A DNA stretch of 64,000 nt from Eledone cirrhosa (GCA_964016885.1 OZ024759.1:18538001-18602000); one strand, 5' to 3'; counted from the stretch's first letter, positions 1,367 through 64,000 are shown. Made by a program: numbers and translations. The notes: generated from the sequence alone by a model not told the origin.

Positions 1367-1690
1367 ATATTTAATATAGAAATGGCTTCTACAGGACTAG
1401 AACTGTTTCATTTGAAGGAAATCATCAGGAAAGCCCTGATGATTCCCTTCAAATGAAAACGCTCTAGTCCTGTAGAAGCCATTTCTATATTAAATATTTA
1501 TACTCTGCTATGTATTGAGTACCTTTACGGTGGTTACCCCCGATTGAACCCAGGTTACACACACGTCCTTGTATTATTATTATATTACACTTTGGTTAGC
1601 TCTACACCTCGCCAATGATGTGAAGCTAAACAGCGAGTGCTCACCTGGGTGAACCTACAGTAACTTCACGCTACACTCCCTGGATATATA
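1367..1690. mobile_element. Fold-back hammerhead-bearing repeat, family F1 (putative PLE pseudo-LTR remnant)
   Basis: Palindrome 1367-1497 (~63-bp arms, loop AAAGC). Each arm reads CTGATGA..GAAA..CTGTA-GAAGC. The tail after 1497 matches copies at 45096-45160 (-) and 58975-59020 (+). Confidence 0.65.
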
Positions 1691-1707
1691 TACAGTACAT
1701 ATTTTAA

Positions 1708-1983
1708 TGTATGGGAGCTTTCCAAAAGTCAGCTCAAAAGTGACACAGGAGACTGAGGTTAGCTGGACATGCTCACCGACATCCAGAGTTGACTCTGCAC
1801 TCAGTGCTCCTGTGGGAGCCCCCACATGGACACACTAGAAGAGGAAGACCAAGGTTAACGTATGTTGATGCCCTAAGGACAGACACTGGTCTGTTGGAGA
1901 CGCAGGACATGGCAGCGATAATGAGGGACAGAGACCGCTGGAGAGAACTCGTCCATTGATCTCGGGAATTTTACCCGCCCTAG
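1708..1983 (+). mobile_element. RTE-clade LINE 3' fragment, family RTE-A (frameshifted)
   Basis: Near-identical to 32327-32626 and 62525-62887; encodes RLAGH..LLWEP.HG..RRGRP..TY.D..DR..WR; ends at the stop codon followed by (TA)n. Confidence 0.85.
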
Positions 1984-2357
1984 ATATATATATATATATA
2001 TATATATATATATACACACACATATATATATATATAAAAATACATTATATGTATATATAATTAGTCAAGGCTGACGGACATGTATGTTTCTGGTAATTGT
2101 GTGCATGTCATATCAATTAACACATGTTACCTTTATCAGTTACAGATCTTTAATTAAATGTCAACTAATATAATTACGTGGGAATGTAAAAGCTCAAATG
2201 AAACACCCAAGAGAGTTGAAATAATAAAAAAATATGAGCAAGAAATAATAGAGCTTACAAAATGAGAATTATTTATTAATGGCTTCTAATTTTGGCGCAA
2301 AGCCACAAGTTTCAAAGAGAAATGAAAGTCCTTTATATGACCACCACTACTTTAATG

Positions 2358-2585
2358 AAGGCGCATGGCTTAGTGGTTAGAGCATTGGTTTTGCAATCGA
2401 AAGGTTGTTTCCTTGAGCAAGACACTTTATTTCACGTTGCTCCAGTTTACTCAGCTGTAGAAATGAGATGATAGGACTGGGGTCCCTATCATTAAATCAG
2501 CCAAGACACCTCCAACGAGATATACCTAGGAGGAGGTCAGCTAAACCTGCATAGGTGTGAGCTGTAACAACAAGCTGTAACAAGA
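2358..2585 (+). mobile_element. tRNA-derived CORE-type SINE nested in an older SINE
   Basis: Head GGCGCATGGCTTAGTGGTTAG (A box), core CCTTGAGCAAGACACTT; 12-bp TSD ACTACTTTAATG at 2346-2357 and 2586-2597 splits a minus-strand SINE (about 2280-2720). Confidence 0.75.
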
Positions 2586-2759
2586 ACTACTTTAATGGCA
2601 CTTTATTTTATCGCTCTCGGAAGGATTAAAGGCAACATTGATTTTGGTGGAATTTGAACTCAGAACTTATAAAGTATAACAAATTCCCCAAATATTTGCC
2701 TGACAATCTACCGACATTGCAAATCCTCTATCCAAAGTCTAAAGTCTTTCTCAAGCCAA

Positions 2760-3005
2760 AAGGCTCATTTGACCGGTGCTTATCCCGGTATCTTGGGATG
2801 AAGCGATTGAGAGGACAAGACTCTCTGGACAGGACAGTCCATTGCAGGGTTAAACCTCCAGCTATTGCTGGTACTCATTTTCAGCTGAGTATACTGGAGC
2901 AGCGTGAAATGAAATGTTTTGCTCAAGAACACAACATGCAGCCCAGGAATCGAACCCACGACATTATGATCGTAAGTCCAACACCCTTTCCACTAGACCA
3001 CCTTC
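2760..3005 (-). mobile_element. CORE-type tRNA SINE
   Basis: Minus strand shows B box GGTTCGATTCC and core TCTTGAGCAAAACATTTCATTTCACGCTGCTCCAGT; same family as 2358-2585 and 5835-6165. Confidence 0.65.
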
Positions 3006-3034
3006 CTCCAGCTATCCTTAGCAGAGATGAAATA

Positions 3035-3235
3035 ATACTTTCGAATTTCAGCACAAGTCCAGCAATTTGGAGGAAAGGGTTAGTCGATTATATCGACTCC
3101 AGTACTTGACTGGTACTATATATTGTTGCTCTCGGTAGGACGAAAGGCGATGTTGCCCTCGGTAGGGTTTGAACTCAGAAGGTAGAGTCGGGACTAACAC
3201 CGACGCACTACGACGCTGCCACCCACGCGCCGCCC
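3035..3235 (-). mobile_element. tRNA SINE (GCCTTTCATCC..GTCGATAAAATAAAGTACCAG-core family), diverged
   Basis: Reverse-complement match to the abundant SINE in this window (TTCTGAGTTCAAA, AGTACCAGT, GTCGAT). Confidence 0.65.
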
Positions 3236-60139: not shown

Positions 60140-61865
60140 GCGCATATATATATATATATATATATATATAAACATACACACACACACACACATATATATA
60201 TACACTTATATATATATATATATATACATACATATATATATATATATATATACATACATATATATATACACACATATATATATACATACATATATATATA
60301 CATACATATATATATACACATACATATATATACACACATACATATATATACACACATACATATATATACACACATACATATATATACACACATATATATA
60401 TAAATACATATATATATATATATATACGGATATACATATATATATGTATATATATATACGGATATACATATATATATATACATATATACATATATATACA
60501 TATATACATATATACATACATATATATATACATACATATATATATACATATATACATACATATATATATATACATACATATATATACATATATACATATA
60601 TATATATACATATATACATATATATATATACATATATACATACATATATATATATATAAATATACACATATATATACATACATATATACATATATATAAT
60701 TATATATATATACATATAAAGAATTAGTATATCTACCAACATATATATACAGATGCATACCTATGCAACCAAATATATAGGTTTTCTCTTAGTAACTTTG
60801 TGGTTCGATGCAAGGGGATGCAGAACAATTATATGAAAGACGTAAAATAAGAAAATTATAGTAATTATAGAAATTTAAGTAAGTTAATTACTATAATTTT
60901 CTTATTTTACGTTTTATATATATATATATATATATATATATATATACCTACATATACATATATATATATATATATACATACATATACATATACCTACATA
61001 TACATATATATATATATACATATATATATATACATATATATATACATACATATATATATACATATATACATACATATACATATATATATATACATATATA
61101 TATATATATATACATATATATATATACATACATATATATATATATACATACATATATATATATATACATACATATATATATATATATACATATATATATA
61201 TATATACATACATATATATATATATATACATATATATATATATATACATACATATATATATATATATACATATATATATATATATACATATATACATATA
61301 TATATACATATATATATATACATATATACATATATACATATATACATACATATATATATATATATATATACATATATATATATATATACATATATATACA
61401 TATATACATACATATATATATATATATATATATATACACATATATACATACATATATACATATATACATACATATATATATATATATATATATATATACA
61501 TATATACATATATACATACATATATATATATATATATATATATATATATACATATATATATATATATACATATATACATATATATATATACATATATATA
61601 TATATATACATATATACATATATATATATACATATATACATATATATATATATACATACATATATACATATATATACATACATATATACATATACATATA
61701 TATATATATATACATACATATATACATATACATATATATATATATATACATATATATATATATATACATATATACATAGAGGGAGAGATTTATGCATATA
61801 TATATATATTTATACACCCACTCCGATATATATATATATATATATATATATATATATATATATGC
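60140..61865. repeat. (TA)n/(TACA)n microsatellite blocks with an embedded 28-bp-arm hairpin at 60840-60912
   Basis: Direct reading. Confidence 0.9.
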
Positions 61866-62387
61866 ATGTATATACTGCCGTAGTTTCGTGTCATTTTTGT
61901 TGATGATTATATATATTTACATATGCCCACCCCCTCTCCCTCTCTCTGTGTGACGCACACGCACTCATACAAATCATGTAGGTGAATAAATAACTATTCT
62001 GCAGTGCAATAGGATATAGCAAGCAATCTTAAGACGAATTATAGCTATTAAGTTTGGAGTGAATAATCAACTAAAAGAGAGAGGTTCTCAAAAACTAAGA
62101 CTAGCCACAACAAAATACATCTACCGTCAAAGACTAATCACCCGTGAAACACGTGTATATATGTATACACACACATATATGCATATATATATATATATAT
62201 ATATATTCCACGTAGATGCACTCCATCATGCACTTTTCTAAAAAAGATAGATCATACAAAAAACGCGAGCACCAACAGTTTTGCAAGAGATGTCAGCATG
62301 AATGGACCTGTTATTTTTATTTAAAGACTTTTTTCCAATTCCAACCAACCCGCCCGTCCCCTCAATCTATCTTATTTCTCATTCTTT

Positions 62388-62421
62388 CTTCTGATGAAGG
62401 ACTAACGTCCGAAACGTCAAG
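62388..62421 (+). ncRNA. Minimal type I hammerhead ribozyme motif (F6)
   Basis: CTT-CTGATGA-aGGAC taac GTCC-GAAA-CG-TC-AAG: canonical core, 4-bp stem II, palindromic ACGT stem III, GUC triplet. Confidence 0.75.
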
Positions 62422-62524
62422 TCCCTCTTCCTGCTATATCAAGCATTAACCTAATATATCCCTTCCAGATACTGTACCGATTGTGTTGTTATTTCTGTTT
62501 ACCTTTTACATACATATATATATA

Positions 62525-62887
62525 CAGATGGTGGATGGGTGCTACACGAGAATGCTGAGGATGGCTCTGAACATTAATCAGTATACACTGAGGATGAAAA
62601 ACTCAGAGCTGTATGGGAGCATCCCAAAGGTAAGCTCAAAAGTGACACAGAGGAGACTGAGGTTAGCTGGACATGCTCACCGACATCCAGAGTTGACATT
62701 GCACTCAGTGCTCCTTTGGGAGCCCCTACATGGACACACTAGAAGAGGAAGACCAAGGTTAACGTATGTTGATGCCCTAAGGACAGACACTGGTCTGTTG
62801 GAGACGCAGGACATGGCAGCGATGATGAGGGACAGAGACTGCTGGAGAGAACTCGTCCATGGATCTCGGGAATTTTACCCGCCTTAA
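62525..62887 (+). mobile_element. RTE-clade LINE 3' fragment, family RTE-A (longest copy)
   Basis: DGCYTRMLRMALNI..RRLRLAGHAHRHPE..LLWEP.HG..RRGRP..DRDCWR; open to the stop codon. Confidence 0.9.
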
Positions 62888-62910
62888 ATATATATATATA
62901 TATATATATA

Positions 62911-63345
62911 TAATATATAAGATCAAAAGATGGTTAAAGGAGTTCCATGTATTTTATTATGCGCATTTCAAAAACAAACATCATCATGCAATAATATTTG
63001 TGTTTTCATCAGATAAAACAGGAGGACATGATATGAAGGCTAAAAAACACTTGTGGATAGTGCAGTTTTAAATCAACATATCATATGTTGATTTAAAACT
63101 GCACTATCCACAAGTGTTTTTTAGCCTTCATATCATGTCCTCCTGTTTTATCTGATGAAAACACAAATATTATTGCATGATGATGTTTGTTTTTGAAATG
63201 CGAATAATAAAATACATGGAACTCCTTTAACCATCTTTTGATCTTATATATTATGTATACTCCAGTCCTACAAACTGTAGAATGCTTTTTATCCGATATC
63301 TGCATTGCTTTATTGTACTACAATAAAACTCACCTCCTACATTAT
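62911..63345. mobile_element. 343-bp almost perfect palindrome (62911-63253, centre 63082) plus tail, family F7
   Basis: 171-bp arms with one visible mismatch; each arm has CTGATGA-long AT-rich stem II-GAAA-TGCG then AATAAA. Confidence 0.75.
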
Positions 63346-64000
63346 ATATATATATATATATATATATATATATATATATATATAAAATCCTTATCGAGCC
63401 CTCTACGGATTTTAGTCTTTACATTTATTATTACTATATATATATATATATATATATATCCCCTTCTTCTTTTCGAGTAATCTCTCATTCGAAGGTGAAG
63501 CATTCTATTTTTCTAATGGCTAGAATATATGCGGCTCACCACACCTGCATACTCATTGATTTCTCCACTAACTTGACCAGTTTTGCCAACCCATTATCGA
63601 AGTAATATTCGGTTATCTGCGAAGCCACTTGTGCTCACAGCACCGACGTCTTCTAATTAAACTGATGATTGACACATAAACTATTATAATGATTTAACTA
63701 TTATAATGATTTAAGCAGGATTTTTATCAAGGCTTTCTCCTCTATATCCGACTTATTCTGCTAGACTAACCGACGGTAGCCATATCAGAAGCACTTTATG
63801 TATTATGTGGCTCTTCACCGCATACCTAGATTTATATAATAACGAATGGAAGGATCAGAAAAGACAAGTGCGTTCGAATTCATTGTCCAGAGAGTCAGGC
63901 CTCAACCACTGCCTTCAATCAGAAATAGTTGGTTCTGCTTGTTTGCATTAATGGAAGCACAGTTTATGTCCCTGTTTAATCTGTAACTTAATTATGGCCT

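Follow-up and report, generated by a model that had tools for sequence, protein, structure and literature searches.

The window analysed here, a stretch of 64,000 nucleotides (nt) from Eledone cirrhosa (GCA_964016885.1 OZ024759.1:18538001-18602000), is AT-rich (29.5% GC), and 21,927 nt, about a third of its length, are masked as simple repeat. Besides fragments of LINEs (long interspersed nuclear elements) and about 32 pieces of one family resembling short interspersed nuclear elements (SINEs), it contains inserts with type I hammerhead ribozyme motifs, head-to-head fold-backs and a short fragment resembling the endonuclease of Penelope-like elements (PLEs) (Table 1). A previous interpretation made from the sequence alone (the sequence-only reading) proposed about ten hammerhead families, a number that turned out to be an overcount; about seven hammerhead-bearing families were found. 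Our analysis suggests that the elements are probably, for the most part, remnants of the pseudo long terminal repeats (pseudo-LTRs) of several PLE families of the Hydra clade, which would have inserted themselves into (TA)n by a mechanism guided by a hairpin and a TATA box.

Hammerheads were searched with a type I descriptor (stem I of at least 4 bp, stem II of at least 3 bp, a stem III and an NUH cleavage site) in a strict and a relaxed version, and 200 local dinucleotide shuffles in blocks of 500 nt served as control. The strict version matches six sites (16643+, 28336-, 42393-, 45220-, 63012- and 63152+) against a shuffle mean of 0.015 and a maximum of 1, and the relaxed version nine against a mean of 0.035. 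The hammerhead motifs seen in the sequence-only reading are therefore real; their number lies far above chance. The CUGANGA...GAAA core with three stems, an NUH site and an open stem I is present in families A, B, F and I under the strict version and in C and H under the relaxed one; the stems pair (stem I over 6-8 bp) though their sequences differ from family to family.

Eighteen sites had previously been cited as hammerheads. Ten have the canonical CUGANGA core with stems, part of them decayed (1385-1478 with both arms, 16643, 16942-, 28299-, 42393-, 45176-, 58930-, 62388, 63152 and 31001); the 5' strand of stem I is gone at 58930-, and 31001, a single copy with a stem II of 2 bp, is weak and possibly due to chance. 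Three more (22190, 45555 and 48510) belong to family D and carry the core CAGAAGA (U4A), which is found in every family D copy of the window; the descriptor accepts only the one at 45559. Another three (22750, 45720 and 59280) belong to family E and retain just the 3' half (GAAA, stem III, GUC), the 5' core being missing at all three loci. The other two sites are without a hammerhead: 53197 is a fold-back lacking a core, and 48300- lacks stem I and reads as the end of an open frame (48307-48432, minus strand; neither of two frames was matched in Pfam). Candidates at 22123-, 27449+, 34346- and 57109+ were rejected as well, since none is accepted by the type I descriptor.

The proposed check against Rfam was of limited help. 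Among the best 150 of 510 matches, the sole hammerhead lies at 28283-28354 (HH9, whose gathering score of 52 is not reached with 38.6 bits); a weak match to Hammerhead_3 at 58947-58994 (E 0.43) comes from a local Rfam search, and nearly all hammerhead sites of the window go undetected by the Rfam models. Folding energies of the monomers are ordinary (z about 0 for families A and D) except for family F (z -4.3). The short palindromic stem III and the G10.1-C11.1 pair of the minimal PLE form occur in families F and H; stem III is palindromic in B and I too, yet their stem II has A-U at its base, and A and D are unlike the minimal form.

Table 1. Hammerhead-related and PLE-related features of the window (positions counted from its first nucleotide; a point in the strand column marks rows without a single strand)
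Feature	Position	Strand	Remarks
Family A fold-back	1371..1562	.	Cores 1428(-) and 1436(+); tail on right arm, hairpin ~1502-1520; left end adjoins (TA)10
Family B insert	16536..16738	+	Inverted tail piece ~16536-16610 and intact hammerhead core 16643, AUA site; (TA)n both sides
Family C hammerhead	16940..16983	-	Core 16977; relaxed descriptor only; single copy; no clade assigned
Fold-back J	20957..21317	-	Old; tail hairpin 21023(-); no recognisable core; (TA)n both sides; absent from the sequence-only reading
Hydra-type GIY-YIG endonuclease C-terminus, 40 residues	21772..21891	+	LN..E...S.C.H end; 5'-truncated at (TAA)n run
Family D 3' untranslated region / pseudo-LTR	21892..22265	+	TATA-like stretch ~22153; decayed CAGAAGA core 22195; tail-less end at (TA)n
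Family E piece	22730..22792	+	Hammerhead 3' half only; (TA)n both sides
Family D tail-only insert	25122..25232	+	Flanked by (TA)n runs
Family F minimal hammerhead	28270..28385	-	Core 28336, palindromic stem III, GUU site, inside long stem I extension; no clade assigned
Borderline decayed Hydra-type endonuclease fragment	30100..30367	-	E 0.014 among 762 pieces
Family B insert	42294..42582	.	Intact hammerhead core 42393(-) head-to-head with tail-only arm, hairpin ~42497+; (TA)n both sides
Family A long fold-back	45090..45540	.	Intact core 45220-, GUA site, 4-bp stem III; TATA box ~45249-45258(-); tail on left arm only
Family D short copy	45551..45628	+	Starts at stem I; CAGAAGA core 45559, all three stems paired; CUU site
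Family E fold-back	45645..45845	.	Tail on right arm with best-scoring hairpin (45774); (TA)n both sides
Family D fold-back	48461..48665	.	Both arms start at stem I; right arm tailed, hairpin 48583
Fold-back K	52957..53296	.	One arm extended; (TA)n both sides; without hammerhead core, without tail hairpin
Family A insert	58916..59024	.	Hammerhead arm (core 58975-) starting at core, and tail-only arm; (TA)n both sides
Family E fold-back	59107..59362	.	tRNA-like spacer ~59160-59250 ahead of tailed arm
Family H minimal hammerhead	62388..62421	+	A9 followed by an unpaired base; closing pair G-C; stem III palindromic; stem I of 3 bp; the minimal form usual in metazoan PLEs
Family I fold-back	62912..63342	.	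Arms 99% identical (young); cores 63012(-) and 63152(+); right-arm tail, hairpin 63259
Family D tail fragment	63385..63434	+	Flanked by (TA)n runs

The inverted, 5'-truncated architecture with one tailed and one tail-less arm, a known PLE signature, is borne out. The sequence-only reading had counted six head-to-head inverted repeats, which are indeed fold-backs, but the number was too low: seven lie over the cited sites and one more at 20957-21317. One arm is longer by about 40-100 nt in all eight, and in three further inserts a tail-only arm is attached to a hammerhead arm (both by eye). As judged in the same way, 11 of the 18 arms in the window have their start at most about 15 nt from the core, and 7 reach well upstream; in three family D arms the start falls on the first or second base of stem I, and in those of family E inside stem II, not at stem I. 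Arms are 86-99% identical to each other (1-14% divergence), which suggests several waves of insertion rather than artefacts.

For a genome-wide check, contigs and reads of four runs from two organisms were aligned to 45050-45900, a segment that includes families A, D and E. It drew 36,722 and 7,890 contigs and 34,534 and 36,351 reads, from all four runs, so that these families are high-copy ones, although such an alignment does not itself give a copy number; families E and D produce the deepest read piles. Two other samples contain joints between opposite strands at the family A hammerhead (45204/45223), with 29 and 42 raw reads, and such joints are also present in 4 contigs. Position 4 of family D (45560) is unchanged in the best 40 of 265 rows, where majority changes are listed at 45572 and 45589; as an inference from these rows, not as a count, A4 is likely to be the family D consensus in both organisms. 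It might be argued that the motifs are chance products of AT-rich DNA and the palindromes artefacts of assembly or library preparation, given the high share of simple repeat, the two cited sites without a hammerhead and the weak motif at 31001. This is extremely improbable: the excess of strict matches over shuffled sequence refutes it for families A, B, F and I, and neither the divergence of the arms nor the recurrence of the family A joints in raw reads and contigs agrees with it.

The association with (TA)n, also claimed previously, is confirmed. (TA)6 lies at most 60 nt downstream of 10 out of 21 cleavage sites, compared with 6.2% of the unmasked positions, and within 150 nt of 14 out of 21, compared with 16.3%. 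None of the 32 SINE-like pieces used as control has an end within 60 nt or within 150 nt of (TA)6. This test is independent of the chosen element boundaries; the boundaries tabulated for the inserts were set by TA runs and are descriptive only.

The Hydra clade is defined by an endonuclease end with CxxC and CxH motifs, by hammerheads and by (TA)n targets, and its listed members include Hydra-1_Obim (PMC8557442). The family D copy at 21773-22265 opens with a frame whose end, LN..E...S.C.H (21796), corresponds to a Hydra-type endonuclease C-terminus and matches the Hydra alignment published in that paper, as far as available; the N and the CxH of the GIY-YIG endonuclease are present, and the CxxC portion has been cut off by the truncation. 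Back-translated into a nucleotide pattern, this end has a single match in the window and none in 100 shuffles. The pattern gathered at least 128 relative loci, at least 121 of them on metagenome contigs and 7 on genome contigs, and none in viral contigs; a family D DNA pattern gave no match in metagenome, viral and genome contigs. The fetched loci are of the Hydra type, with CxLCxxE upstream in 82 of 115, YRDD in 19 of 42, and YRDD plus the CxC-x-C linker in all 13 long open reading frames (ORFs). Seven of them (L122-L128) are Hydra-type PLE ends in contigs of two bacterial metagenome-assembled genomes, probably because host DNA contaminated those bins.

A profile of 112 unique fetched endonuclease ends yields one domain match in the window (21770-21840, i-E 4.5e-5), and with a profile of the 13 long ORFs a further fragment, at about 30250-30367(-), is a borderline match (E 0.014). 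The statement of the sequence-only reading that no PLE ORF is visible is thus right as far as the reverse transcriptase (RT) is concerned, for no Penelope RT ORF of the Hydra kind (RWK, DKT and CxCX5C linker, no CCHH, a single ORF, under 3 kb) was found in the 64-kb window, while RT-bearing ORFs are present in the fetched relatives; it overlooked the endonuclease C-terminus. A Pfam search with 115 open frames of the window returned two matches, both below threshold and irrelevant. Independent support comes from the hammerhead, which relatives also share: 29 of the 56 loci with at least 450 nt of downstream sequence possess a strict one 130-426 nt after the endonuclease motif, against none in 33,252 nt upstream. 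The family D core, a variant, lies within this range, 399 nt after the motif, and a U.U pair under stem II is found in 13 of the 29 fetched hammerheads and likewise in window families A and D.

Judged by these sequence features, a Hydra-type PLE origin of most of the window inserts is very probable. Of the non-autonomous population related to PLEs or retrozymes that had been envisaged, the PLE origin is supported, and for families A, B, D, E, I and J it can be assigned more closely, to the Hydra clade; the retrozyme-like, non-autonomous character finds no support, since no head-to-tail hammerhead repeats or tandem retrozyme arrays occur in the 64 kb and family D runs back into the endonuclease C-terminus. 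One could still suppose that some families (E and D) are truly non-autonomous, retrozyme-like or SINE-like, that they borrow the enzyme of a Hydra PLE, and that the copies in the window are monomeric offspring of tandem masters or of masters transcribed by RNA polymerase III. Their deep read piles would suit this idea, as would the tRNA-like stretch ahead of one E copy, the letters at the joint of some reads, in which family D sequence is followed by its own upstream pseudo-LTR sequence, and the derivation of retrozymes from PLE pseudo-LTRs (10.64898/2026.07.22.740005, in the part available). We regard it as unlikely, given the missing head-to-tail repeats and the link of D to the endonuclease end; the tRNA-like stretch, moreover, is single-copy and undetected by ARAGORN and Rfam, and partial tandems are also normal in autonomous PLEs.

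A second shared feature is a GCTC/GAGC hairpin in the tail. Among the 56 loci, 30 have a downstream GAG motif, preceded by CTC in 29, and of these 29 an inner stem of at least 3 bp is formed in 23, compared with 7.8% after shuffling. For covariation, 25 out of 26 tails were aligned, L004 being left out for its long spacer: 91.4% of the cells pair, against at most 50% in slid controls, and both-sided changes occur in 23 cells against 7.3 in shuffles, a value reached in 0 of 500. As the motif served as anchor of the alignment and the tails come from loci related to each other, these statistics lean towards the structure. The top 5 of 20 window matches to a covariance model built without window sequence all fall in tails, with E 0.0004-0.54: 45768 and 59325 in family E, 21029(-) in J, and 1496 and 45161(-) in A. 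The tails of D and I fit the hairpin motif by pattern, that of I lying outside the 20 model matches, and in A, B, E and I the hairpin has A-U where the relatives have G-C.

Copy ends are related to this hairpin. Of 50 rows comparing related loci, 15 lose similarity at -6 to +3 of hairpin 1 and 18 at +51 to +84 from it; the other 17 end elsewhere, and part of the rows are reciprocal. A second hairpin is present 50-100 nt beyond the first in 8 of 83 segments, and a hairpin pair lies about 2.1-2.2 kb before the endonuclease end in 7 of the 31 entries with 2 kb of upstream sequence (two from one contig). The full order, i.e. endonuclease end, TATA-like box, hammerhead, hairpin 1, 60-80 nt, hairpin 2 and the next ATG, can be read in the tandem relative L074, which contains a partial tandem with pseudo-LTRs around the ORF; none was seen in the window. 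In L073/L074, a Hydra element in tandem form, two pseudo-LTRs enclose an open frame of about 700 residues, and the element ends in (TA)n. Window families A, B, D, E, I and J possess the tail hairpin and both types of end.

The third feature is a TATA-like box. The box of family A is found upstream of C3, at a distance of 38 nt. Of 65 fetched loci (31 clusters), 25 (9 clusters) have a strict TATA-like word that begins between -47 and -34, compared with 1-3 loci and 0-1 clusters in five equal control bins; with a looser set the count is 45 of 65 loci against 2-9. With a start about 30 nt downstream, a box at -38 would place the 5' end of the RNA on stem I. The read depth of family A falls across stem I by factors of 16, 42, 4.5 and 4.5 in the four runs, with mixed flanks, and loose read ends at stem I agree poorly (0.41-0.42); a pile of read ends at 45334 in the runs from restriction-site-associated DNA is likely a restriction site and not a biological end. 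Promoters described for other PLEs vary: Penelope of D. virilis has an internal promoter without TATA (PMC2377424), and rotifer pseudo-LTRs have a putative TATA box (PMC3846280), according to the parts of these papers at hand. A transcription start at hammerhead stem I, as suggested by the position of the box, has in our estimation slightly less than an even chance of being correct.

As to how the short inserts arose, the same Hydra-type origin could be combined with ordinary 5' truncation, in which case the inserts are copies of the 3' end made by an RT that stalls or switches template at the hammerhead, and the TATA box and the hairpins have other roles. This possibility, which we hold to be nearly as good as even, follows the standard account of 5' truncation with inversion (PMC8557442; PMC4209133, as available); the seven arms that reach beyond the TATA box, including D at 21773, need longer templates, and the E arms do not start at stem I. 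Against it speak the sharp fall of family A depth just where the -38 box predicts the RNA start, the three D arms that start on the first or second base of stem I, and the weak folding of the hammerheads of A and D, which makes them a poor block for RT.

The mechanism we propose for the Hydra-type elements differs from such truncation. The element's own endonuclease would nick the (TA)n target, and reverse transcription would start on the RNA just 5' of either hairpin, which would result in a tail-less or a tailed end. If the RNA, as the TATA box would have it, begins at stem I of the hammerhead, a copy primed within the 5' leader would run off after 60-200 nt and be left as a solo hammerhead insert; priming on both target strands from the two sites would join two complementary DNAs head-to-head and so produce asymmetric fold-backs. 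A precedent is the PAc protein of a Poseidon PLE from Anolis, reported in the available text of PMC11167929 to nick both strands of AT-rich DNA and to reverse-transcribe from two internal sites bounding the tail, with no ribozyme activity needed in vitro. The copies run across the cleavage site, so their template was probably not cut, and insertion may do without the ribozyme; the A4 core of family D and the missing core of family E are consistent with this. The complete proposal (the paired GCTC/GAGC hairpin as RT docking signal, a TATA promoter from which the RNA begins with the first hammerhead base, solo hammerheads and asymmetric fold-backs as run-off and twin-primed leader copies instead of random truncations, and a U4A-core family at high copy number in at least two species) remains tentative, and we would lean somewhat against all its parts being right together. 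If it is true, the spread of the U4A core implies that cleavage is tolerated or protein-assisted, or that the ribozyme is not needed.

Several points weigh against our interpretation. The profile match of the endonuclease is partly circular, as the pattern used to gather the loci was written after the window fragment was known; the 40-residue piece has no match in three protein database searches and Pfam; and family D alone is tied to an ORF piece, of these 40 residues. The fetched loci are interrelated, with 27 of 65 in two clusters. All 29 fetched hammerheads are CUGA and none CAGA, with a short loop III and GUH sites throughout, while A and D of the window have a loop III of 7-8 nt, and the site of D is CUU. 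Families C, F, H and K have no tail hairpin and are unassigned to a clade, the family B tail scores only E 8.7 in the covariance model, and the family D tail is not among the 20 matches. The edges of the TATA bin were fixed after the box of family A had been found; in D the TATA-like stretch is just a loose one, B and I lack any at that position, and 7 of 18 arms reach well upstream of the core. Finally, the depth drop in family A is partly explicable by subfamilies that diverge upstream.

The Hydra-clade elements themselves look like new families of a known clade, and are expected in a cephalopod-like genome, so that their main use lies in better repeat annotation; short fold-backs like these imitate microRNA precursors. 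The cis-signals apparently are undescribed: the Hydra tail hairpin, the position of the TATA box and a natural U4A core were not found in the literature searched, in which subscription papers and Repbase reports are little covered, and the main text of PMC3088659, as far as available, mentions U4C and U10.1-U11.1 variants but not U4A. The hairpin pair and the TATA position are concrete candidates for the signals by which PLEs make tails, inverted copies and solo hammerheads. Intact natural ORFs among the fetched loci (L073/L074, L016) make the question testable, and family D provides a natural ribozyme test.

Other repeats of the window include three 3' fragments of one young LINE-like family (1708-1980, 32327-32623 and 62588-62883), 95-97% identical and with a best database match of 74%, which we take to be of the RTE type. 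A C-terminal fragment of a LINE RT at 23588-24383, between (TA)n runs, has many homologs with PF00078, and a broken LINE fragment at 47300-48236 (-), presumably of the R4/Dong type, shows RT and restriction-like endonuclease motifs and has its 5' end at a TA run. The 317-nt pair at 5474-5790 and 35782-36098 (97% identical) runs out into an open frame whose C..E..I...LN spacing resembles the endonuclease end of a PLE from another clade. Palindromes without hammerhead or tail hairpin at 19036-19193, 35544-35607, 42038-42081 and 1261-1347 are possibly miniature inverted-repeat transposable elements. Two diverged two-copy repeat pairs lie near TA runs (27415-27537/35144-35262 and 28664-28779/34302-34416), and a 169-nt unit with SINE sequence inside occurs in three tandem copies, 99% identical, at 31456-31963. 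Directly ahead of a family E arm, the single-copy stretch 59160-59250 contains words like A and B boxes; it is possibly a SINE head mobilised by a PLE or captured host DNA.

Among known systems, the Hydra-clade PLEs, including Hydra-1_Obim from Octopus bimaculoides, are closest (PMC8557442, in the parts available). They agree with the window elements in the LN..E...C.H end, the type I hammerhead shortly after the ORF, the frequent U.U under stem II, a stem III of 3-4 bp, (TA)n targets, inverted 5'-truncated copies and an optional tail. (TA)n targets are given there for Hydra and Naiad PLEs, with Octopus families listed in supplement S1/S2, and the inverted copy with optional tail is described for PLEs in PMC3846280 (in part available) as well. 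Six short motifs of window families are absent from that supplement and the 3' end of Hydra-1_Obim differs; the window families therefore look like other families. Further differences are the long loop III of A and D and the CAGAAGA core with CUU site of D; the tail hairpin and the TATA position were not found in the main text. Similar to the minimal PLE hammerheads of Cervera and de la Pena 2014 (PMC4209133, as available) are the mostly solo copies, the heterogeneous families and the opposite-strand pairs 100-700 bp apart, and that study already described solo or opposite-strand hammerheads from truncated PLEs. Families F and H share with them the palindromic mini-stem III predicted to act as dimers, whereas A, D and E have a stem III of 4-5 bp and could fold as monomers; the core variant reported there is U3-A8, not A4. 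Non-LTR retrozymes (PMC7229834; 10.64898/2026.07.22.740005, from the accessible text) likewise consist of short repeats that are non-coding, carry a type I hammerhead and are related to PLE pseudo-LTRs, but they are defined by head-to-tail tandem units and circular RNA, and the window has only single or head-to-head copies. As for a hammerhead SINE of the Schistosoma Sm-alpha type, whose copies would share a Pol III (tRNA-like) head and carry an intact hammerhead, there is a single tRNA-like stretch (59160-59250), uncalled by ARAGORN and Rfam, and E is without a core. Naiad PLEs resemble the window elements in (TA)n targets, tailed fold-backs and remnants in cephalopods; they differ by an N-terminal endonuclease and by the lack of canonical hammerheads, and no sequence link to the window was found in the available material of PMC8557442. 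The hammerhead-free fold-back at 53197 could nevertheless be a Naiad remnant. The giant squid, for comparison, has 235 hammerheads (PMC6962438, as far as available). With PAc, finally, the proposed mechanism shares two internal RT starts, an AT-rich target and the nicking and extension of both strands; PAc belongs to another clade and starts in an AC-rich stem-loop inside the ORF (PMC11167929, available part), whereas the ends in the window and its relatives lie just before two copies of the GCTC/GAGC hairpin upstream of the ORF.

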